Shown here piece by piece: positions 5,815-62,307 of a stretch of DNA of 64,000 nucleotides; the stretch's first letter is position 1; each line of letters opens with the position of its first letter. A model generated the notes under the pieces. It was not told the origin of the DNA, made no database searches, and saw only the letters and a list, made by a program, of their open reading frames with translations. A program made the translations under genes and the position numbers. This DNA is from Candidatus Hodarchaeota archaeon. GTDB lineage: Archaea > Asgardarchaeota > Lokiarchaeia > Sigyniarchaeales > SOKP01. The DNA is taken from assembly GCA_048887225.1 (NCBI GenBank), contig JBHLJY010000001.1, positions 320,001 to 384,000 on the forward strand, in the 5' to 3' direction.

Positions 5815-8800
5815 ATGGGAGTTATATTTAAACTTGCGATAAGGAATATGAAAAGGCGTAAGGCAAGGTATATCCTTACAACTATTACGCTTGTAATTGG
5901 TGTTGCGCTGTTTGGAGGCATTTTAATAGCCAGGGATTCTTTCAGGGTAATGTTTATCAAGGATATTGACAATCGAATGGGGACCGCTGATATTTTAATT
6001 CGTGAAACTGAAACGCAAGATGGTTGGTTTAGACCGAGTACTGTAGAGGATATTGAAAATTTACCTCACGTCGATTATGTTTCTTATAGAATAGCTGGTG
6101 AATATGTATATACGAGTTGGATCTTACATGGAAATCAACTTTATAATAGTACGAGAACTGCGGTATATGGGATTGATATCGATGATAGTGACGAGGAAGA
6201 ACTTGGAGGCAAACCGTATATTATAGATTCTGATGTAGACGGGGATACTATTGAAGAGCTCCTTGATGAGGGAATTAATAATTACGGGAAAAAAACTATT
6301 GTAATCACAGAGTCTTTGCAAATAAAGTTAGGAAAAAAATTTGAAGCGGGCAACAAAATTTGGGTACTACCTATAGATTATCATCTTATAATCGGGGAGA
6401 ACCAACAGGATGTAGCTGCTGATACAGCTTTATGGGATACATATACTGTTGCTGCTATAATACGAGATCTAGGTGAGGCAAGAGATTTTGACCCTGAAAC
6501 ACCATCAACCTATGATTCTCCTTCGTCAGGACCTTGCTTATTTGCCAACATTGAGACTGCACATGATCTCGTTGATGGTATTATTGATCGCACTGGTTTA
6601 TATAATCTTGTGGCGGTGGGTGTAGATGATCTTAATAATCTTGAAGGTATTATAGATGATATTGAAGACGAGCTAGGCGATGATTGGGTCGTAGCAGATT
6701 TAAAAACGGATACTATTGAACAAATTAATGATTCTGTTGATATGATGATGACCATACTGTTAATGTTTGCTATTATTGCTTTAATCCTTTCGATTATTCT
6801 AATAGTAAACATTTTTAATATTATAAAAGAAGAGCAAGAGTACGAGACCGGAATGCTCCAAGCTGTAGGTGCGTCAAAGTCGGAAACCTTTAAAATGTTT
6901 TTAACACAAGGAGTTGTAATGGGAGTTATTGGAACAATTATAGGTACAATTTGTTCTTTTTTTATGTCATACCTTATTTTTTATATAACAGTAGAATCCC
7001 TTAAGAACTTGCCAGGTGAATTTGGTGAAATGTTTGCCCAAACAGAATTCGAAATCATTCTATACCCACAGACCCTTGCATTAACCGTAGGTGTGGGCAT
7101 ATTTTCATGCATTATGGCTGCTATTTATCCTAGCTGGAAAGCAAGTCGAAAGCCTCTTATTGAATGCCTAAATCCTCTTGCACATAAAGCTGAAAGGGAG
7201 AAAAAACATCATAAAAGAAAGATTCTATATATTATTATAGCCTTCATGTTAATTGCTTATGGTTCTTGGCTTTTATATACTATAGTTGGATTTGGTCCTA
7301 GACGAGGAGGTAATGGTCAAGAGGGTTTGACAGAATCAACAGCATCCATTATTGCTCCTACACTTATTTTATTGGGTGTAATTGGGCTTGCGGCTATTTT
7401 TGTTGGTCCTATTACAAAGGGATTTATTAAAATCTTTGGCCCGTATTTAAAACATACAAAATTGCTAACAAAAAAAAATGTTTTAAGACATCATAAAAGA
7501 ACGGTGCTTACATTTTCAATGATTTCTCTAACGGTGAGTTATCTTGTTGGTATTAGCGTAATAATGGGTTCTCTTAGGGAAGGTGTTCACACTACTGTCA
7601 ATAACGTAATGGGGTGTGATATTCGAATATTTGCCCAAAACACACCTCAATCGTTTGAAGATGAACTTGAAGATATCGATGGAGTTGCTGATGTAATGGG
7701 AGTGTCTCATCGAAATGTACAGTTATTTCATGAAGATAGGAATAAATGGATTGGACACAGCTCATTAGAAAAGGATTGGGATAAATCCGTTACAGTACAT
7801 ATATTAGATCCCGACAAGGTTGAAAAATATATGACTGAAACAGTAATATTTGAGCCTAGTGATATGACGCTTGAAGATATGATGGACGAGATAAAAGATG
7901 AAAATACTATGATTATTACTGAGGAAGAAGCAGATTACTTTGATTTAGATGTAGATGATGAGGTATCAGTAAGATTTTCACTTGGAATAAGTTTTGCCTC
8001 TTTTGATGACATGCAAGCTTATAATACAGATAATGCTATAGAGGTTACACATGATGAAATTATAGAAGTAATAGCAATTGTCGAGAAGTTTCAAGGTTTT
8101 GCTACTGGAGAAATTATAGGTCAGGAAGAAGGCGCGTTTAATATATATGTATCATGGCAAACATATGAAGAGATTGCACGTAATAATCTTCCTGGAGGAA
8201 ATACCGATATTATATTCAGAAAAAAACCACAATCAGGAGATGATGGCATAGATTTATATGCACCTAATTGGTTCAATTTTTCGGAAGTATCTCCTATATT
8301 AAATAGTATAAGTGGAATAGATTATTATACAACACGTATGGATTATATCAGCCCAACCTTTGATCTCGCATTACCATTTAACCCGTTCAATCCAAATGAT
8401 TACATTGAGAAAATTATATATAATTCTTCTGTGGTTGGTATTAGGACGAATTCTACTGGAGATTTTGAAGATGATTCCTACTTTGGAAATCACAAATTAA
8501 TTAACAATACAGACTCAACAATGGAAGAGCTCTTAAATACTACTAAAAATGTATGTGTAATTGATCAAACATTCTTTAATAATATGAGAAGTAAGGATCC
8601 TTCATTTGGTATAGATTCAAATATTACAATATTTCCTCAAGAATTTAATCTATTTCCAAATACTATAGACACGGGGGCAGGCAATACTACTGCTATACCT
8701 AAAAATGGAACTATATCAGGCTCAGAAAATGCTCTTACTAATTCAGATAATGGTTATATTTCTTTTATAAGCAATAAAACTTCTTTGGAACTGAATATTA

Positions 8801-52821: not shown

Positions 52822-53943
52822 TTATATAGGGTTACATCCAAAACACCAATCATTTTTATAGGCTTGACATTCTAGACAATTCCTCCCACAAATGGTGTTT
52901 TGGTTATCTACACTAAAAAAATTTATAGGTAAAAATTGAGGCTTTGATATTTCTGAAGAAAAAGTAATTTCAAAGGATTTTATTAATTCTCTTTCCGATA
53001 GAACGCAATAATTTAAAAAATTATTTAAATCGTCCAGAGTTTTTCCTATAACACCTATAAAGAGATGAAATTGCCCTGTAATTTTTGATATCATGTATAT
53101 CCTAGGGCAATCATAATATTTATTGAGATAATTATTGATATCATTATAATTGTTAAATTCAATCTTAATTTGGGCAAATTTAAGATTAAGGCGGTTAGGA
53201 TCAATATTAGCTTGGATTTTAAGAAGACCCTTATTTATTAATTTATTAATTCGATTTTTAACTCCAGTATGACTCATTATTTTCTTTTTAATTTTAATTT
53301 CCATACCGATTCGGGTTTGGGTTCCATCAATAAATAATTGGTTTAATATTTGCTTATCAACTTCATCAATTATATTATTAGACTTTTTTGTGACTTTTTT
53401 TGAATCTTTTAATTTTTTTTCAATTTCTATTCTTTCCTTTTTATCTCTTTTACTTTCCAATCTTAGTTTTAGAATAGGTGATATATAAGATGCAATTGTT
53501 TCTAATAATTCAACTTCTTGTATGTTATAATCAGATTCTTTATTTGCAACTTCTAGAATTCCAATTACTTTATTTTGGGATTTAATTGGAACCATAATAG
53601 CTCTATTCATTGGAATATGCCCTTCTGGAACTTTAAATGGTTCATTGGAATACTTAGTTGTGCCTTCAATGATAGCTCTAGCCCACAAGGCTCTACTATT
53701 TTCCCAATCTTTACGAGGGAATATAATATCCTTGCCCTCAATTCTGCATTCTTCCATTACATCTCGAGTCATTGAAGGACAAATTAAATCACCATTAGTA
53801 GCGATATAACCAAAAATTCCATAGCTACTTTTTATTGTATTCATGATTATGTCTAATACGTTGGCATATATCTCATATCCCGGATATTTATTAAAGGTGT
53901 CAATAATTTTATCTCGAATTTGTAAATCCTTTTCCAAACTCAT
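52822..53943 (-). CDS. GAF + Lrp/AsnC regulator fusion with Cys-rich C-terminus
   Basis: GAF (PEGH.PM...VIGILEVAN); IDEVDKQIL HTH; CPRIY; CGRNCLEC...CFGC tail. Confidence 0.8.
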   Translation of the reverse strand: MSLEKDLQIRDKIIDTFNKYPGYEIYANVLDIIMNTIKSSYGIFGYIATNGDLICPSMTRDVMEECRIEGKDIIFPRKDWENSRALWARAIIEGTTKYSNEPFKVPEGHIPMNRAIMVPIKSQNKVIGILEVANKESDYNIQEVELLETIASYISPILKLRLESKRDKKERIEIEKKLKDSKKVTKKSNNIIDEVDKQILNQLFIDGTQTRIGMEIKIKKKIMSHTGVKNRINKLINKGLLKIQANIDPNRLNLKFAQIKIEFNNYNDINNYLNKYYDCPRIYMISKITGQFHLFIGVIGKTLDDLNNFLNYCVLSERELIKSFEITFSSEISKPQFLPINFFSVDNQNTICGRNCLECQAYKNDWCFGCNPI

Positions 53944-54280: not shown

Positions 54281-54772
54281 ATGGATGATATTGATAGGAA
54301 TATTATTCAAATAATACAAGAGAATTCAAATCTTACACATACCGAAATTGCAAAAAAAGTTAATAGGAGTCAACCTACAGTTGGAATGCGAATCCGAAGG
54401 CTTGAAAAAGCTGGCATTTTGAAGTTTCAAGCAGGAATAAATTTAAAAACTGCTGATATACTTCTTGCAAGAGCTGAAATTGTAACAAATAATCCTAAAG
54501 AAATAGAACGTATTGTAAAAAATTGTCCTTTTATGATTAATGCATTTCGATTAAGTGGAAATTCAAATATTAGCGTTTTTATCGTCGGTTTTAAAATGAG
54601 CGAAATTGATAATATTATAAATTGCCATTTTAGAAAGAACCATTATGTAGAGAACATTAGTTTAGATATTATTCTTGATATAATAAATGATTTTGTCTTA
54701 CCTTTCAAGATTAATATCGACTATTGCGAAATTTGTAAAAAGGGGCAATGTTTTTCTAATTTTAAAGAATAA
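54281..54772 (+). CDS. Lrp/AsnC-family transcriptional regulator
   Basis: MDDIDRNII, EIAKKVNRSQPTVGMRIRRLEK. Confidence 0.9.
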   Translation: MDDIDRNIIQIIQENSNLTHTEIAKKVNRSQPTVGMRIRRLEKAGILKFQAGINLKTADILLARAEIVTNNPKEIERIVKNCPFMINAFRLSGNSNISVFIVGFKMSEIDNIINCHFRKNHYVENISLDIILDIINDFVLPFKINIDYCEICKKGQCFSNFKE

Positions 54773-54927: not shown

Positions 54928-54943
54928 AAAAAGGTATAAATAA
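54928..54943 (+). promoter_or_regulatory. Candidate BRE/TATA promoter of the trp leader transcript
   Basis: A-rich purine run plus GG followed by TATAAATA, about 55 nt upstream of the leader ATG. Confidence 0.5.
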
Positions 54944-54996
54944 CATTTATTAATTATTTTTAATAATATTCAAAATCAAGTTAATGGAAAAGAAAA

Positions 54997-55068
54997 ATGT
55001 TTAGAAAAAATTTAAACCTAAAAGTTCCCTCATCAACTTGGTTTTGGGTTTGGTGTTGGCACGCATAG
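54997..55068 (+). CDS. trpL: Putative trp operon leader peptide (MFRKNLNLKVPSSTWFWVWCWHA)
   Basis: 23-codon ORF with TGG at 55039, 55045, 55051 and 55057, 174 nt upstream of trpD; stop inside a GC hairpin. Confidence 0.8.
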   Translation: MFRKNLNLKVPSSTWFWVWCWHA

Positions 55069-55119
55069 AGCGTGCGCAATGACTTTATCTATTTAAGAAT
55101 TTCTTGCTTTTTTCTCTTT
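55056..55119 (+). terminator. Candidate attenuator: hairpin GCACGC-ATAGA-GCGTGC plus downstream U-rich tract
   Basis: Stem 55059-64/55070-75, extendable by TTG/CAA; T-rich run TTTCTTGCTTTTTTCTCTTT at ~55100-55119. Confidence 0.55.
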
Positions 55120-55242
55120 ATAATTCCTAAAGATTTTAGTTTGAATTATGAAGATTAAAATTGTTTTTTAAAATATTAGAAATTCCAATTCTATAAAGAT
55201 TTTAAAATGTTATGTTAAAAAAAAGAAATAAATTGTATAAAA

Positions 55243-56307
55243 ATGTCTGAAGAAAAAATAGTTGAAGGTTTAAAAAAAATAAGTCAAAATGTTAGCTTGA
55301 CAATTGAAGAAGCAGAAAATATAATGAGAGATATAATGTCTGGTAAAGTGCAAGACGCTCAATTAGGAGCATTTTTAACAGGATTAGCTATGAAGGGAGA
55401 GTCTATTGAGGAAATAACAGGCTTTGCTCTAATAATGAGAGAATTTGCAAACCGAATTCAACCTAAAGTAAACGGCGAGTTATTAGACACATGTGGAACT
55501 GGAGGAGATAAAATCAAAACATTTAATATAAGTACAATTTCAGCGTTAGTAGTGGCAGGGGCGGGAGTTCCTGTAGCAAAACATGGGAATCGTGCTGTAA
55601 CGAGTAAATGTGGAAGTGCTGATTTGTTAGAGGGATTAGGGGTGAAAATTGATTTACCTCCTGAAGAGGTTAAGACGTGTATTGAAGATGTAGGGATTGG
55701 ATTTATGTTTGCGCCTCTATTTCATCCAGCGATGATGTATGCTATGCCTACTAGAAGAGCATTAAAATTAAGAACAGTATTCAATATACTTGGTCCTTTA
55801 ACAAATCCCGCTAATGCGAAGTATCATACTTTAGGGGTTTTTGATAAGAGTTTAGCTCCGATTATGGCAAAAGTTCTCGGAAGCGGTTTAGGCGCAAAAC
55901 ATGTTTATACGATTCATAACTCTTGTGGCATTGATGAATTAGCACCTGTGGGAATTAATTATATAACAGAATTTAACAATGGAAATATTGAAACTTATGC
56001 TTTGACAAATAAAGATTTTGGAATTGAAGATTGCAATATAAATGATATTTTAGCAGGTAAATCTTTACAGGAGAATTTAGAAATTGCAGTTAGAATTTTG
56101 AAAAATGAACTCAAGGGTTCAAAATTTGATACTGTCTTAATGAATTCAGCTTTAGCCCTTACAAGTGCTGGTATAGCAAGTGGTATTAAGGAAGGTGTAA
56201 TACTCGCAAAAAACGCAGTAGAATCTGGAGCTGCTCATAAAAAACTTGAAGATTTAATTAATATATCGGGCGGAAACCAAGCAAAACTAAACAATTTATT
56301 GAAATAG
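55243..56307 (+). CDS. trpD: Anthranilate phosphoribosyltransferase
   Basis: DTCGTGGD, FNIST, KHGNRAVTSKCGSAD, RTVFNILGPL. Confidence 0.96.
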   Translation: MSEEKIVEGLKKISQNVSLTIEEAENIMRDIMSGKVQDAQLGAFLTGLAMKGESIEEITGFALIMREFANRIQPKVNGELLDTCGTGGDKIKTFNISTISALVVAGAGVPVAKHGNRAVTSKCGSADLLEGLGVKIDLPPEEVKTCIEDVGIGFMFAPLFHPAMMYAMPTRRALKLRTVFNILGPLTNPANAKYHTLGVFDKSLAPIMAKVLGSGLGAKHVYTIHNSCGIDELAPVGINYITEFNNGNIETYALTNKDFGIEDCNINDILAGKSLQENLEIAVRILKNELKGSKFDTVLMNSALALTSAGIASGIKEGVILAKNAVESGAAHKKLEDLINISGGNQAKLNNLLK

Positions 56308-56308
56308 C

Positions 56309-57115
56309 ATGGAAGGAATGATATCAAATAAAATAAAGGAAATAGTAGAACAACGGCGAAAATCTATTGATAAGGATAGAAATTTTAAGTTCACATTAGG
56401 AGAGAAGGTGCATAAAGATAATCGACCAACTCTTAGTGAATCTATTGAAAAAGAGTCCGGGATCTCAATTATTTCTGAAATCAAGCCAGCTTCGCCAACT
56501 CTCGGTAAAATACGTAAAGAATTAGATATAAAAAAGATCGCAAAAGAAATGGAAAGTTCAGGTGTTGTTGGTTTAAGTGTTTTAACAGAACCTAATTATT
56601 TCGATGGTTCATATGAGAATTTGAGACTTGCGATAGAGAACACAAAAATACCATGTTTAATGAAAGACTTTGTTGTAGATCCTGTTCAAAATATAATTGC
56701 GTCTCAGTTGGGCGCAACAAATATATTGATAATTAATTCTATTTGTGATTTAGAAGAAAACTATCACTCTGCTGTAGATCATGGCCTGGAACCGTTAATA
56801 GAAATTCACGAGGTTGAAGAATTACAGGACATTAAGCATTTATTTGATATTGGGTTGAAACCGAAATTAATAGGAGTTAATAACCGAAATCTGAAAACGC
56901 TTGAAATTAATCTTAATACTTCAAAAGAAATTATTCCCAAATTAAAAGCGGAATTTGGGAATGAAATTGTTATTGTAAGTGAAAGTGGTGTAAACACGAT
57001 TGACGACATTAATTTTCTTTTAGAATATCAAGCTGATGCATTCTTAATTGGATCTTCTATAATGCAATCAGAGAATATAAAAGAAAAAATTTTTTCATTG
57101 AGAGGTGTAAATTGA
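56309..57115 (+). CDS. trpC: Indole-3-glycerol-phosphate synthase
   Basis: EIKPASP, SVLTEP, KDF, GVNNRNL, SESG. Confidence 0.95.
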   Translation: MEGMISNKIKEIVEQRRKSIDKDRNFKFTLGEKVHKDNRPTLSESIEKESGISIISEIKPASPTLGKIRKELDIKKIAKEMESSGVVGLSVLTEPNYFDGSYENLRLAIENTKIPCLMKDFVVDPVQNIIASQLGATNILIINSICDLEENYHSAVDHGLEPLIEIHEVEELQDIKHLFDIGLKPKLIGVNNRNLKTLEINLNTSKEIIPKLKAEFGNEIVIVSESGVNTIDDINFLLEYQADAFLIGSSIMQSENIKEKIFSLRGVN

Positions 57116-57762
57116 TGGAGTACATTAAAGTTTGTGGCTTAAGAGAAAGTGAACACATTAAATTATGTATAGATAATGATGCTAATGCTGTGGGCTTCAT
57201 TTACAACGTTCCTAGTTCACCGAGGAATTTAGAAAAACCTGAATTATTAAACCTTTTAAAAGGTATTCCTAAGAAATTATTAACTGTTGTTGTATCTAAA
57301 CCTAAAGATATCATGGAATTAGAAAATATAATGAATGAAATAGATGTTAATTTATATCAAATTCACAATAATTTTGAAGATACTGAAATTGATGATATTC
57401 CAACTGATTTAAAAGAAAAAATTGTTTTAGCATTAAAAGTAAATCCTTCCAATAAAAGTAATGTAATTAAAAAAATAAACAAATATCATGACCAGTTTTA
57501 TGCATTCTTAATTGATAATAGTGAAGGTCATGGTACTGAATTTAATTTCGATATCGCTAATGATATCATAAATAATACCGAAGGAGCGAGAATAATAATC
57601 GCTGGAGGTATAAATATTAATAATATTGAAAAGATAATTAGAGATTTAAACCCTTTTGGAATCGATGTGAGTAGTTCTTTAGAATCCAAAAAAGGGGTTA
57701 AAGAGCCATTAAAAATTCAAAATTTTTTAAATAAAATAAACGAAATTAAGAAAGAGTTGTGA
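57112..57762 (+). CDS. trpF: Phosphoribosylanthranilate isomerase
   Basis: KVCGL, SPR, QIH, AGG, DVSSSLE. Confidence 0.95.
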
Positions 57763-57769
57763 GAGAGAC

Positions 57770-58972
57770 ATGAAATATAGTGAAAAATATCCCAATGAGT
57801 GCGGCAAATTTGGGGATTTCGGAGGGATATTTGCTCCAGAAGTTCTCATGCCAGCGCTAACTGAGCTTGCTGAAGCTTTTGAAAAATATAGAAATGACTT
57901 AAGTTTTAAAAATGAATTTTATCAGATTCTCGAATCATATGGAGGGCGTCCAACACCCTTATTCTATGCTAAAAAATACAGTGAAGATATAGGATGCAAA
58001 GTGTATCTGAAAAGAGAGGATTTAGTACATGGTGGAGCTCATAAATTAAATAATGTAATAGGACAGGCTTTATTAGCGAAAAAAATGGGAAAAACAAAAT
58101 TGGTTGCTGAGACTGGCGCTGGACAACATGGATTCGCGACAGCTATTGCTGGTGCTTATTTCGGCATGGAAACAAAAGTATTTATGGGAGAAGTTGATAT
58201 TGTTAGGCAAGCGTATAACGTCTATCGAATGCAGCTTCTCGGAGCTGAAGTAATACCCGTAAGCACGGGTTCCAGAACACTAAAGGATGCAATTAATGAT
58301 GGACTTAGATATTGGATCACCAATGTTAGAGACACTCACTATTTAATGGGAAGCGTTGTCGGTCCACATCCCTATCCGCTATTAGTTAGAGAATTCCAAA
58401 GAATTATTGGTATTGAAACTAAGAAGCAAATAATAGAATTAGAGGGACGATTACCTAATGCCATTGTTGCGTGTATAGGTGGTGGAAGTAATGCCATTGG
58501 TATAATGTATGATTTCATTGAAAATGAAAATGTCCAGTTAATTGGAGTTGAGGCGGCCGGAGAGGGATTAGAAACAGGAAAACATTCAATAGCATTAGGA
58601 TTAGGTCGAAGAGGTGTTTTACATGGATCATTAATGTATTTATTACAAAATGAATATGGTAATATATTGGAGACTCATTCTATAAGTGCGGGACTAGATT
58701 ATCCCGGTGTAGGTCCTGAACATTGTTTCTTAAAAGAATTAACTCGCCTTAGAGTGGAAGCCGCAACCGACAAAGAGACTTTAGACGCTTTTCAAAAATT
58801 ATCAGTCTTAGAAGGTATCATTCCAGCATTAGAATCTTCGCATGCCCTTGCATGTCTGGAAAGAATTAAGGGTGAGTTTAATAAGGATGATATTGTAATA
58901 ATTAATTTATCTGGCTCAGGATCTAAAGATCTAGACATAATTAAACAGCATATGGAGTTTAAAGTAAAATGA
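57770..58972 (+). CDS. trpB: Tryptophan synthase beta chain (TrpB1)
   Basis: [36 protein letters not shown]. Confidence 0.97.
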
Positions 58973-59808
58973 ATGATTCAAATAGAATTTTGAACCTTTT
59001 TAATGATAAGGAAGTAATAAACGAAAAATGTTTTATGCCTTTTCTAGTATGTGGAGATCCTTCAATTGAGCAGTTCATATCAATGGTTAAAAAGATCGAT
59101 CCATATATAGATATCCTTGAATTAGGAGTGCCATTTAGCGATCCAATTGCCGATGGTCCCACCGTTCAGGAGGCAAATATGAGGGCATTTGAAGCGGGAA
59201 TCAACACAAAAGTAGCTCTTGATACAATCAAGAGAATCAGAACATTTTTTAACAAACCGATTGTTATTTTAACTTATTATAACATCTTAATCCAAGGATC
59301 AGAGACAATCGAAAGTTCTTTGGATAATACCTTAAAATTATGTAAGGAAAGTGGTATAGATGGAATTGTTATCGCTGATCTCCCAATTGAAGAAGCAGGA
59401 TTAGCGTTGAAATATTGTAAAAAACATGACATATCGCTTATATTTTTAATTGCTCCAACAACTACAGACGATAGATTAGAAAAAATCTTAAAAGAAGCAA
59501 GAGGATTTGTCTATTTAATATCAATCTTAGGTGTTACTGGGGCTCGAGAAAAAGTCGCACAAATCACGAAAGAAACGATTAAAAGAGTAAAAGAAAAGAT
59601 CAAATCTAAAATACCAATATTCTTGGGATTTGGTATATCTAAACCTGAGCACGCTTCCACTCTAGTGGAACTAGGAGCTGATGGTATTATTATTGGTTCG
59701 GCAATAATAGACGTCATTAAGAGAAATTTAAGTGATTTTAATAAAATGGAGCAAGAATTAGTTGAATTTGTATCAAGTATAAAAAATGCGATAAAGAGGT
59801 CGAGTTAA
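58969..59808 (+). CDS. trpA: Tryptophan synthase alpha chain
   Basis: [28 protein letters not shown]. Confidence 0.97.
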
Positions 59809-59810
59809 CT

Positions 59811-61307
59811 ATGGAATTTGATATACATATAGAAAAAATTGGTCATTTGGATAATATTTTTAGTTTTTATAAATATTTAGTTAAGAAATATGATTTAAAA
59901 AAACATGTTCTATTAGAATCTGCTTCGGAAAACACGAAGGAAACCCTTTACAGCTTTATAGCGTTAGAACCCGATTATATGCTGGAAATCAATGAAGATA
60001 AATATAAAATTTTCGATATCACTACTGAGCGAGGGGAAAATATTAATGATTACGTAGAATCTAAAGATATTTCGGAAGAAAGGCCGCATAATCCACTGCC
60101 ATTTAAGGACAATGTTGAATATAACATGGTCGCCCTTGATACTCTAAGTTCTCTTACGCCATATTCAAATCTGCCTTTCACGGAGTTATTTCCAAGAAAT
60201 ATTTTCTACGGCGGAATGTTAGGTTATATAGGATATGATGTTGTTGCCCCATATGTAGGTTATAAATCTACTAGTGAATTTTCTGATATTTTAATGGGAT
60301 TATATACAAAAGTGCTTGTTTACTCTCATGAATCTAACTTATTATTTATGATCGATAATAGTATCGATGATTACTCCCGAGATAAAGAAATTCGTTATCA
60401 GTTGAGTTTATTCAAGAGAAATAACAGTTCCGCCGAAAAGAAGGAAATTCCCTTGGATATCGAAGATATTGATGAATCTGGGTTTAGATCTAATACGTCC
60501 AAATCCGCTCACGAGAGAATGGTTGAAAAAACTAAAGAATATATATATGCAGGCGATATAATACAAGCAGTTATTTCCCGAAGATTATATACTGAGAGTA
60601 AGATTGACCCTATGGCTATTTATGAGGTTCTACGGGTTTTAAATCCTTCACAATATATGTATAACTTAAATTTTGATGATATTAAAATCATAGGGAGTAG
60701 CCCTGAAGCGCTGATTTCTAAGAATAAAGACGTTCTTAATACTGTTCCGATTGCTGGTACAATAAGGAGGGGCAAGACTCCAGAAGAAGACCTTAAATTG
60801 GAAAAAGAATTACTTAATGATCCCAAGGAGCAAGCCGAACATCTCCAATTGGTGGATCTTGGGAGAAATGACCTTGCTAAAGTTTCATATCCTGGTTCTG
60901 TCGAAACTTATGAATTTATGATAATTCAAAAATATCAAAAAGTTCAGCATATTGTAAGTAAAGTTAGAAGTAGGACACCTTTAGACGGCTACGAAGTTTT
61001 GAAGAGCGTTTTCCCTGCTGGGACGCTCTCTGGTGCGCCTAAACTGAGGGCTATGCAAATAATACAAGAATTAGAAACAGAATCGAGGGGCCCCTATGGT
61101 GGTGGTGTGGGATATTTCTCGTTTAATGGTGATATGGCGTTTGCCATAGCCATCAGGACTCTATTTGGAATGGACGGGACATATTTTGCGCAAGCGGGAG
61201 GTGGCATTGTTTCCGATAGCCAGCCTCACGAAGAATACATAGAAACTTACAATAAACTATATAGCGTTCTAAAATCAATAAAAATAGCGGAGGCCAGAGA
61301 TAAATGA
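59811..61307 (+). CDS. trpE: Anthranilate synthase component I
   Basis: LLES, GSSPE, PIAGT, EH..LVDLGRND, FPAGTLSGAPK. Confidence 0.95.
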   Translation: MEFDIHIEKIGHLDNIFSFYKYLVKKYDLKKHVLLESASENTKETLYSFIALEPDYMLEINEDKYKIFDITTERGENINDYVESKDISEERPHNPLPFKDNVEYNMVALDTLSSLTPYSNLPFTELFPRNIFYGGMLGYIGYDVVAPYVGYKSTSEFSDILMGLYTKVLVYSHESNLLFMIDNSIDDYSRDKEIRYQLSLFKRNNSSAEKKEIPLDIEDIDESGFRSNTSKSAHERMVEKTKEYIYAGDIIQAVISRRLYTESKIDPMAIYEVLRVLNPSQYMYNLNFDDIKIIGSSPEALISKNKDVLNTVPIAGTIRRGKTPEEDLKLEKELLNDPKEQAEHLQLVDLGRNDLAKVSYPGSVETYEFMIIQKYQKVQHIVSKVRSRTPLDGYEVLKSVFPAGTLSGAPKLRAMQIIQELETESRGPYGGGVGYFSFNGDMAFAIAIRTLFGMDGTYFAQAGGGIVSDSQPHEEYIETYNKLYSVLKSIKIAEARDK

Positions 61308-61909
61308 AAATTTTATTTATTAACAACTACGACAGTTTTGTGTACAATTTGGTGAATTATTTCTGCCAAGTAGCACCAGATTCAAATATAATCGTTGAGG
61401 ATAACAATATCCCAGTTGATAAAGTCAAGAATATGAATATTGATAAGATTGTTATATCTCCTGGTCCAGGACATCCTAAGTACGATACAGGCACAGTAAT
61501 ACCCATCATTAAAGAATTTTATTCTAAATTACCAATATTAGGAGTTTGTCTAGGACATCAAGCGCTAGTAGAAGCATTTGGAGAATTGGAACATCCCGAT
61601 AATGACATCGAATATGTGGGACTGGCGAAAGTTGGTCCTATGCATGGAAAAATCTCAAAAATATTCCATGATCAAGAAACTATTTTTAAAGATATACAAA
61701 ATCCTCTAATGGGCGTAAGATATCACTCTTTAGCTGCTAAATCAGATTTATTGTCTCAAGATTTAAAAATCAGCGCTACTGCAGACGATGGCACTATAAT
61801 GGGCGTTCGTCACAAACATTACTGTATCGAGGGTATTCAATTTCATCCAGAATCCATTAAAATGAAGCCTCATGGAATTACAATATTGAAAAACTTTTTA
61901 AAACTATAA
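61304..61909 (+). CDS. trpG: Anthranilate synthase component II (glutamine amidotransferase)
   Basis: YDSFVYNL, SPGPG, GVCLGHQ, QFHPES. Confidence 0.95.
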   Translation: MKILFINNYDSFVYNLVNYFCQVAPDSNIIVEDNNIPVDKVKNMNIDKIVISPGPGHPKYDTGTVIPIIKEFYSKLPILGVCLGHQALVEAFGELEHPDNDIEYVGLAKVGPMHGKISKIFHDQETIFKDIQNPLMGVRYHSLAAKSDLLSQDLKISATADDGTIMGVRHKHYCIEGIQFHPESIKMKPHGITILKNFLKL

Positions 61910-62121: not shown

Positions 62122-62307
62122 CTAAAGATCCCTAGCTTTTACGGTTTTTCTCCCATTTGCTTTAGCTCTCGCAATGGCTTTATCAAGAAGTTTTATAATA
62201 CTTGCATTTAAACCTCCCTTTTCATCTAATACAGCACCCGCTGTATTACAACCCTTCTTTTTAATGTGTTCTTTTACTTTAGATTTAACAAAAAGTGCAT
62301 CAACCAT
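62122..62307 (-). CDS. Short histone-fold protein with truncated alpha3 (DUF1931 / face-to-face or Bd0055-like)
   Basis: LFVKSKVKE...KAIARAKANGRKTVKARDL; GGAGGA RBS. Confidence 0.85.
   Translation of the reverse strand: MVDALFVKSKVKEHIKKKGCNTAGAVLDEKGGLNASIIKLLDKAIARAKANGRKTVKARDL

Follow-up and report, generated by a model that had tools for sequence, protein, structure and literature searches.

The tryptophan operon of an Asgard archaeon (Candidatus Hodarchaeota archaeon; Lokiarchaeia; Sigyniarchaeales; SOKP01) is preceded by a short Trp-rich open reading frame set in folded RNA, and the comparison of related sequences indicates that this Trp leader is a real, conserved regulatory element. 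By translation, the leader very probably senses the charging of tRNA-Trp and, in the reading that we favour with a probability of about 0.52, it uses this signal to control whether the trp transcript ends prematurely, by termination or cleavage. The window that we analysed is the whole stretch of 64,000 nt on the forward strand of contig JBHLJY010000001.1 (assembly GCA_048887225.1), positions 320,001-384,000, and it comes from a genome (G000) of 3.27 Mb that is 98% complete and has 30% GC. In coordinates of the window, the leader and its surroundings comprise:

54935-54942 (+): TATA box of the leader and operon promoter, an octamer 62 nt 5' of the leader ATG
54972-54982 (+): 5' strand of helix P0, forming 11 bp with 55035-55045 and enclosing the leader start codon
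54997-55068 (+): leader ORF of 23 codons, with ATG start and TAG stop
55035-55045 (+): 3' strand of helix P0, containing the first Trp codon
55052-55083 (+): hairpin P1/P2, with the last Trp codons and His-Ala in its 5' arm and the stop codon in its loop
55077 (+): CAWUGG-type anchor, within the 3' arm of P1/P2
55084-55126 (+): U-rich tract with U6 at 55108-55113, a candidate FttA/aCPSF1 cleavage-termination zone
55097-55185 (+): long-range helix P3, pairing 55097-55104 with 55178-55185 and, as an inner helix, 55116-55126 with 55143-55153
55243-61909 (+): operon trpD-trpC-trpF-trpB-trpA-trpE-trpG, from NCBIfam matches

The four TGG codons of the leader are codons 15, 17, 19 and 21 (at 55039, 55045, 55051 and 55057), which gives an alternating W-x-W-x-W pattern with no tandem WW, and 174 nt separate its stop codon from the start of trpD. 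An earlier sequence-only reading of this DNA had pointed out the 23-residue ORF with four TGG codons near its end, between a TATA-like box and trpD, and had judged it unlikely to arise by chance. Both statements stand, since no other among the genome's 3,588 small intergenic ATG ORFs has four Trp within eight residues (one has three) and since 24 of the 25 genomes with trpD carry the leader. A blind genome scan for the enrichment of single residues ranked it third among 3,476 upstream ORFs (p 1.3e-6). The coordinates given in that reading, 54997-55068, describe the ORF correctly and are too narrow for the whole element, which spans about 54935-55190.

By the canonical archaeal spacing from the TATA box, transcription would start at about 54965-54968. 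The same TATA motif lies 50-63 nt 5' of the leader ATG in 22 of the 24 trpD loci of relatives, and none recurs at a fixed position between leader and trpD at these loci, where TATA-like words are scattered; this makes the leader most likely the first part of the trp transcript. As such, a start of trpD transcription downstream of 55068, which the sequence-only reading had named as evidence that would count against it, is not borne out, and an internal promoter before trpD was rejected for want of a TATA box at a conserved position in the spacer. An Lrp/AsnC-type regulator gene (54281-54772, +) lies beside the operon in the window and is not kept next to trpD in relatives; it was considered as the regulator and rejected, given that relatives have other upstream neighbours. 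A gene for a GAF-like plus Lrp-like protein (52822-53943, -) is also near the operon and not kept next to trpD in relatives, and on the far side lies a 61-aa ORF (62122-62307, -) whose C-terminus looks by eye like an archaeal histone fold, with no match in Pfam or NCBIfam. The closest TrpD relatives among the matches listed belong to Promethearchaeota (Lokiarchaeia) and are archaeal except for one bacterial MAG, so that nothing points to the leader having come in with a bacterial operon.

The family survey covered 135 genomes, 25 of which have trpD. A Trp-rich leader precedes trpD in 24 of these, which cover nine genera and as kin are not independent, and the contig of the 25th stops 409 nt upstream. 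An in-frame ATG followed by a stop-free frame is present at 24/24 trpD loci, compared with 0.14 per locus in shuffled sequences, and the frame is preserved although the N-terminal sequence and the length differ among relatives; the number of Trp codons ranges from 2 to 6, TGG exchanges with TGT, and His with Arg. A sequence model of the leader core matches 97 of the 135 genomes. In addition to the trpD loci, 16 more leaders of the type seen in the window (type A) stand before a split-off trpE, before trpA-trpE or before a GNAT/methyltransferase gene, and Trp leaders were found at 22 of the best 30 trpB2 loci and at 51 of 60 further ones, these 60 being partly chosen by hits of the model. This brings the family to about 110 Trp leaders (trpD, split trpE/trpA units and most of the trpB2 loci examined). 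Where the operon is split, a leader stands before each of the pieces (G005, G044 and G049), and across the family the leader RNA is kept while the gene downstream and its distance vary, the spacer before trpD measuring 143-284 nt. Before trpD-first operons in other families of Asgard archaea, among them Ca. Lokiarchaeum ossiferum (L119) and Wukongarchaeota, Trp clusters are likewise found close to the stop codon; no Trp cluster was seen within 750 nt upstream of trpE-first operons, and scanning metagenomes with a TrpD alignment gave distant loci only. The Trp-rich short ORFs that the sequence-only reading had proposed to look for upstream of related trp operons are thus present.

The leaders fall into two types, type A being represented by 21 sequences in the test of helices and type B by 78 in the counts of U-tracts. 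In type A, P0 is paired in 88% of cells, with five pairs changed on both sides, and P1/P2 in 91%, with little covariation because its sequence is nearly invariant; jointly they reach 90% with six pairs changed on both sides, which is above 500 of 500 shuffles, a control that is inflated by relatedness. The regulatory Trp codons overlap both helices, which a stalled ribosome would block. P3 is seen sequence by sequence in most type-A leaders, with compensated variants and a variable inner length, and it would bury the U-rich tract after read-through. In type B, P0 joins the 5' end to the segment after the stop codon, and a conserved hairpin, P4, follows about 90-135 nt downstream (top covarying pair z 8.4). 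The anchor, which is common to both types, lies 14-21 nt past the last Trp codon in 24/24 trpD loci, and in L019 the stop codon of the leader is lost with the RNA spacing to the anchor intact. Codon choice for Gln and Arg in the leaders tracks the helices, and Arg codons within the Trp cluster are CGY in 32/32 cases compared with 15.5% genome-wide, which suggests that the residues other than Trp are constrained as RNA. A search of Rfam with the leader returned no family, including no match to RF00513, and only two unrelated hits with E above 5.

Given an ORF with four Trp codons in conserved folded RNA that heads about 100 related Trp transcripts, it is very likely that a ribosome senses the shortage of Trp here. 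Whether premature termination of the trp transcript is the output we would put at about even odds; the conserved part stops short of the downstream start region and is followed by different genes, and this argues for a decision at the RNA level. Here we propose that the first ribosome would load on the leader while the RNA polymerase is still nearby. If Trp is ample, it would reach the stop codon and be released, the hairpin P1/P2 would close, P0 would hide the leader start so that a second ribosome could not reopen the hairpin, and the ribosome-free, U-rich RNA would be cut and terminated by FttA/aCPSF1. If Trp is low, the ribosome would stall on the UGG codons, keep the hairpin arm open and trail closely behind the polymerase, which might then pass the U-tracts through either an open hairpin or the exclusion of FttA; after read-through, P3 would cover the U-tracts and trpD would be transcribed. 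Translation, stalling, the site at which transcription stops, the role of FttA and the alternative of hairpin loss or steric exclusion are what we infer from the sequences.

Termination by FttA is favoured because the zone after the anchor is U-rich, its tracts are suitably spaced, and the genome has FttA and no match to Rho. A U5 tract follows the anchor in 69% of the 78 type-B leaders, compared with 45% of convergent gene ends and 25% of regions before first genes; the corresponding values for U4 are 94%, 62% and 51% and those for the U fraction 0.55, 0.43 and 0.39, where the controls come from a single genome (G000) and the leaders are kin rather than independent cases. U4 tracts recur at 12-17 and 29-33 nt past the anchor, about 13-15 nt apart, which is near the spacing of the two U-selective sites of FttA (PMC11616081). 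FttA touches RNA 20-36 nt from the 3' end, with U preferred at -23 and between -30 and -36 (PMC11616081), and FttA/aCPSF1 binds two U4 tracts best, a Lokiarchaeal aCPSF1 having the same dependence on U4 in M. maripaludis (PMC8716108). The orthologue in the genome matches TIGR03675 at E 8.9e-263, above the family cut-off. Competition between the ribosome and FttA at the elongating polymerase is a published hypothesis and an open question (PMC11616081, PMC8116511).

However, several observations speak against this model. P0 and P3 need U-rich strands for pairing anyway, L014, L020 and L022 are among several type-A leaders in which no U-run directly follows the hairpin, and the first U4 tract of type B lies within P0 and would thus be hidden in the released state. 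In the window, the first tract after the hairpin is only U3, followed by U6, and some leader tracts lie in helices. A stalled ribosome normally uncouples from the polymerase, which would favour FttA, so that the model requires either hairpin dependence or short-range exclusion. When a ribosome-sized block was placed in folding, no switch was seen downstream of the anchor, although equilibrium folding could miss kinetic switches. In addition, control at the ribosome-binding site seems the better fit for sister leaders (that of leuA and those before trp in other Asgard families).

Four other cognate leaders were found in the same genome, for Leu, Ala/Val, Ile and Phe:

G000 C11:2901-2999 (-), L239: Leu-rich leader before leuA, with relatives L240-L268
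G000 C4:112950-113042 (-), L269: Ala/Val/Ile-rich leader before one of two ilvE paralogues, with L270-L274 and L285
G000 C3:229760-229819 (-): Ile-rich ORF before the citramalate synthase gene (cimA), examined in G000 only
G000 C2 about 410570-410665 (-): Phe-rich TTG ORF before pheS, examined in G000 only

The Leu, Ala/Val and Ile leaders surfaced in the blind scan of residue-enriched upstream ORFs, and in all four the cognate codons lie directly 5' of the stop codon. The Leu leader is present at 26 of 30 leuA loci, with a hairpin after the stop and an invariant AGG Shine-Dalgarno (SD) core; its Leu codons are able to pair over this core in the leuA start region, and the mean unpaired probability there rises from 0.48 to 0.62 on stalling in folding. 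The Ala/Val leader before ilvE occurs at seven loci, and its start-codon region and the U-rich segment after its stop can each pair with one shared downstream strand. A look for leaders at other operons had been proposed in the sequence-only reading; of those it named, Leu is borne out before leuA, with Ile, Ala/Val and Phe in addition, and no His-rich leader lies directly before hisG. Its broader claim, that a translated leader controls trpDCFBAEG, is supported by the conservation and by these cognate leaders, and we infer the output step. We tentatively suggest, at slightly below even odds, that amino-acid leaders (Trp, Leu, Ile, Ala/Val and Phe) form a genome-wide set in Asgard archaea, each letting a stalled ribosome gate FttA/aCPSF1.

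The same tRNA-Trp sensor might instead act on the initiation of trpD translation, with stalling freeing the start region and FttA polarity being secondary. The invariant AGG core in G000, which the Leu codons of the leuA leader can mask, speaks for this reading, as do the short-spacer trp leaders of other Asgard families, whose post-stop segments are complementary to the trpD SD. We nevertheless regard it as unlikely, since equilibrium folding leaves the accessibility of the start region nearly unchanged at trpD (0.44 naked, 0.44-0.46 stalled) and at trpB2 (0.39 naked, 0.39-0.41 stalled), and no segment shows cognate-specific pairing between leader and start region while the P0, P2 and P4 controls are positive. 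In addition, no conserved SD precedes trpD in the family, where the spacer measures 143-284 nt, and the leader would have to be translated repeatedly, which P0 would block. SD masking at trpD and trpB2 was rejected accordingly, folding at equilibrium showing no stalling-dependent switch. Between the attenuation-like and uORF-like forms offered by the sequence-only reading, the evidence leans to attenuation at the RNA level, as no switch of the ribosome-binding site was found; a scanning or reinitiation uORF was rejected by argument, because a biosynthetic operon needs stalling to mean ON, and a uORF of the scanning type would have the wrong polarity, with stalling cutting biosynthesis when Trp is scarce.

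A stalled ribosome could also act on mRNA stability by protecting the complete transcript against decay, either 5'-to-3' or endonucleolytic (aCPSF1, aRNase J). Such a mechanism has the correct polarity, fits the base-paired 5' end of both leader types and requires no pair of terminator and antiterminator; however, stability alone does not explain the positioned U-tracts, and we consider it improbable. To a classical 1:2/2:3/3:4 attenuator with an intrinsic terminator hairpin in the style of E. coli trpL we give a still smaller chance. The Trp codons do sit in a 1:2-like hairpin, P4 is strongly conserved downstream in type B (z 8.4), and U5-U10 runs lie 19-22 nt past P3 in nine type-A leaders, but no covarying or cognate-preferred 2:3 helix was found across the leader set, U5 follows P4 in only 1% of type B, P3 of the window has no U5 run behind it and Rfam gives no match. 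Alternative 2:3 helices between the post-stop segment and P4, seen by eye in single sequences, were not upheld across the set. Arrest by a nascent peptide that senses free Trp through the conserved C-terminal W-x-W-R/H-A, as in TnaC or the fungal AAP, seems very improbable: the pattern is conserved and adjoins the stop codon, but the constraint is at the nucleotide level (the CGY bias of Arg, 32/32 against 15.5%), the number of Trp (2 to 6) and the length vary, TGG/TGT and His/Arg exchange, and L019 retains the RNA spacing without a stop codon. Least probable of all is a structured RNA that is not translated, in which the UGG repeats persist only for pairing or protein binding and the ORF is incidental, since, although the UGG triplets do pair and the Gln and Arg codons follow the helices, a stop-free in-frame ATG is found in 24/24 loci against 0.14 each by chance and four other amino acids have matching leaders before their own genes.

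Among known systems, the leader compares as follows. Like the enterobacterial trpL (RF00513), it has a short ORF first in the trp transcript, with Trp codons clustered near its end in a hairpin arm, and as with P0 here, the leader start of E. coli trpL can be masked by pairing. In contrast to trpL, the Asgard leader has an archaeal promoter and polymerase, alternates W-x-W-x-W in place of tandem WW and has no Rfam match, and neither an antiterminator nor a GC hairpin-plus-U terminator was found in it. Measured against trpL-type attenuators in general, it has the cognate-codon ORF, the conservation with the pathway and a 1:2-like helix, and it is without the 2:3 helix and the intrinsic terminator. 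The leader thus works like bacterial attenuation and misses the structural criteria of trpL, its nearest logic being that of Rho-gated leaders with FttA replacing Rho. In Rho-dependent leaders such as E. coli tnaC, Salmonella mgtL/corA and Chlamydia ytgR-trpBA, the position of the ribosome gates the termination factor on pyrimidine-rich, G-poor RNA (PMC13675443). The Asgard leader differs in that no Rho match was found, the beta-CASP nuclease FttA/aCPSF1, which is homologous to CPSF73/INTS11, being the candidate factor, and in that the proposed signal is uncharged tRNA-Trp, whereas tnaC responds to free Trp. Control of translation by leaders is known from B. subtilis rtpLP and the actinobacterial LEU element, in which the cognate codons stand directly before the stop; control of this type is plausible for the sister leuA leader, whereas the Asgard trp leader is without a detected SD/anti-SD switch. 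For archaea, Xie and Reeve (2005) reportedly noted a Met-Trp mini-ORF in the trpY leader of M. thermautotrophicus. Archaeal trp control is described as promoter-acting, by TrpY (M. thermautotrophicus) and Tar/TK0271 (T. kodakarensis), in a paper in which attenuation and leaders are unmentioned (PMC6737238) and with which the sequence-only statement on DNA-binding regulators such as TrpY agrees. These regulators share the pathway with the Asgard leader and differ from it in acting at the promoter. No report of archaeal leader-peptide attenuation was found in the literature searched, in which most subscription papers are absent.

Attenuation by leader peptides is known from textbooks as a bacterial device, and the conservation of a Trp leader in Lokiarchaeia implies an action of ribosomes on nascent RNA in these archaea. 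[quoted passage not shown] The leader could thus serve as a small, mutable test piece for ribosome-FttA competition (PMC11616081, PMC8116511); an aCPSF1-depletion strain of M. maripaludis complemented with Lokiarchaeal aCPSF1 exists (PMC8716108), and the cultured Ca. Lokiarchaeum ossiferum has such a Trp leader.

Several minor observations concern the wider set of loci. In one genus (L333, L342, L343 and L344), a Trp leader stands before a GNAT-methyltransferase fusion gene, which suggests an unrecognised Trp-linked function. L116 has two tandem Trp-containing leader ORFs before trpD (8549-8620 and the region 8114-8230, coordinates converted from the reversed locus). Between leader and trpD, some relatives have an uncharacterised ORF of 80-100 aa with a GPEK motif, ORFx (L007:1228-1500, with homologues in L008, L009, L013, L015, L018 and L019), which is missing in the window and has close homologues only, without a match in Pfam, NCBIfam or Atlas. 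Before trpB2 of G000 (C11:31593-31820, L299), a type-B leader is retained in part, with its post-stop half and P4, and the Trp ORF is lost, and a Met-Trp-Lys-stop mini-ORF lies directly 5' of the trpB2 start.

Arrangements reminiscent of frameshifting were also seen. In L120, L121, L131 and L132 (and L129, L130), the frame that carries the Trp cluster near the stop lacks an ATG, apart from a distant one in L132, and an upstream ORF with a Trp codon overlaps it one base out of frame, suggesting entry by frameshift; at several of these loci, segments after the stop are complementary to the trpD SD. At 18 of 84 trpE loci, mostly of Bathyarchaeia (L054, L057, L061, L062, L064, L068, L069, L071, L079, L080, L084, L086, L087, L088, L093, L098, L102 and L141), a conserved start of six codons, the last of them for Trp, occupies a different frame, to which the TrpE frame is +1 in 18/18, which makes these loci candidates for a +1 frameshift on Trp starvation that would be needed to make TrpE.
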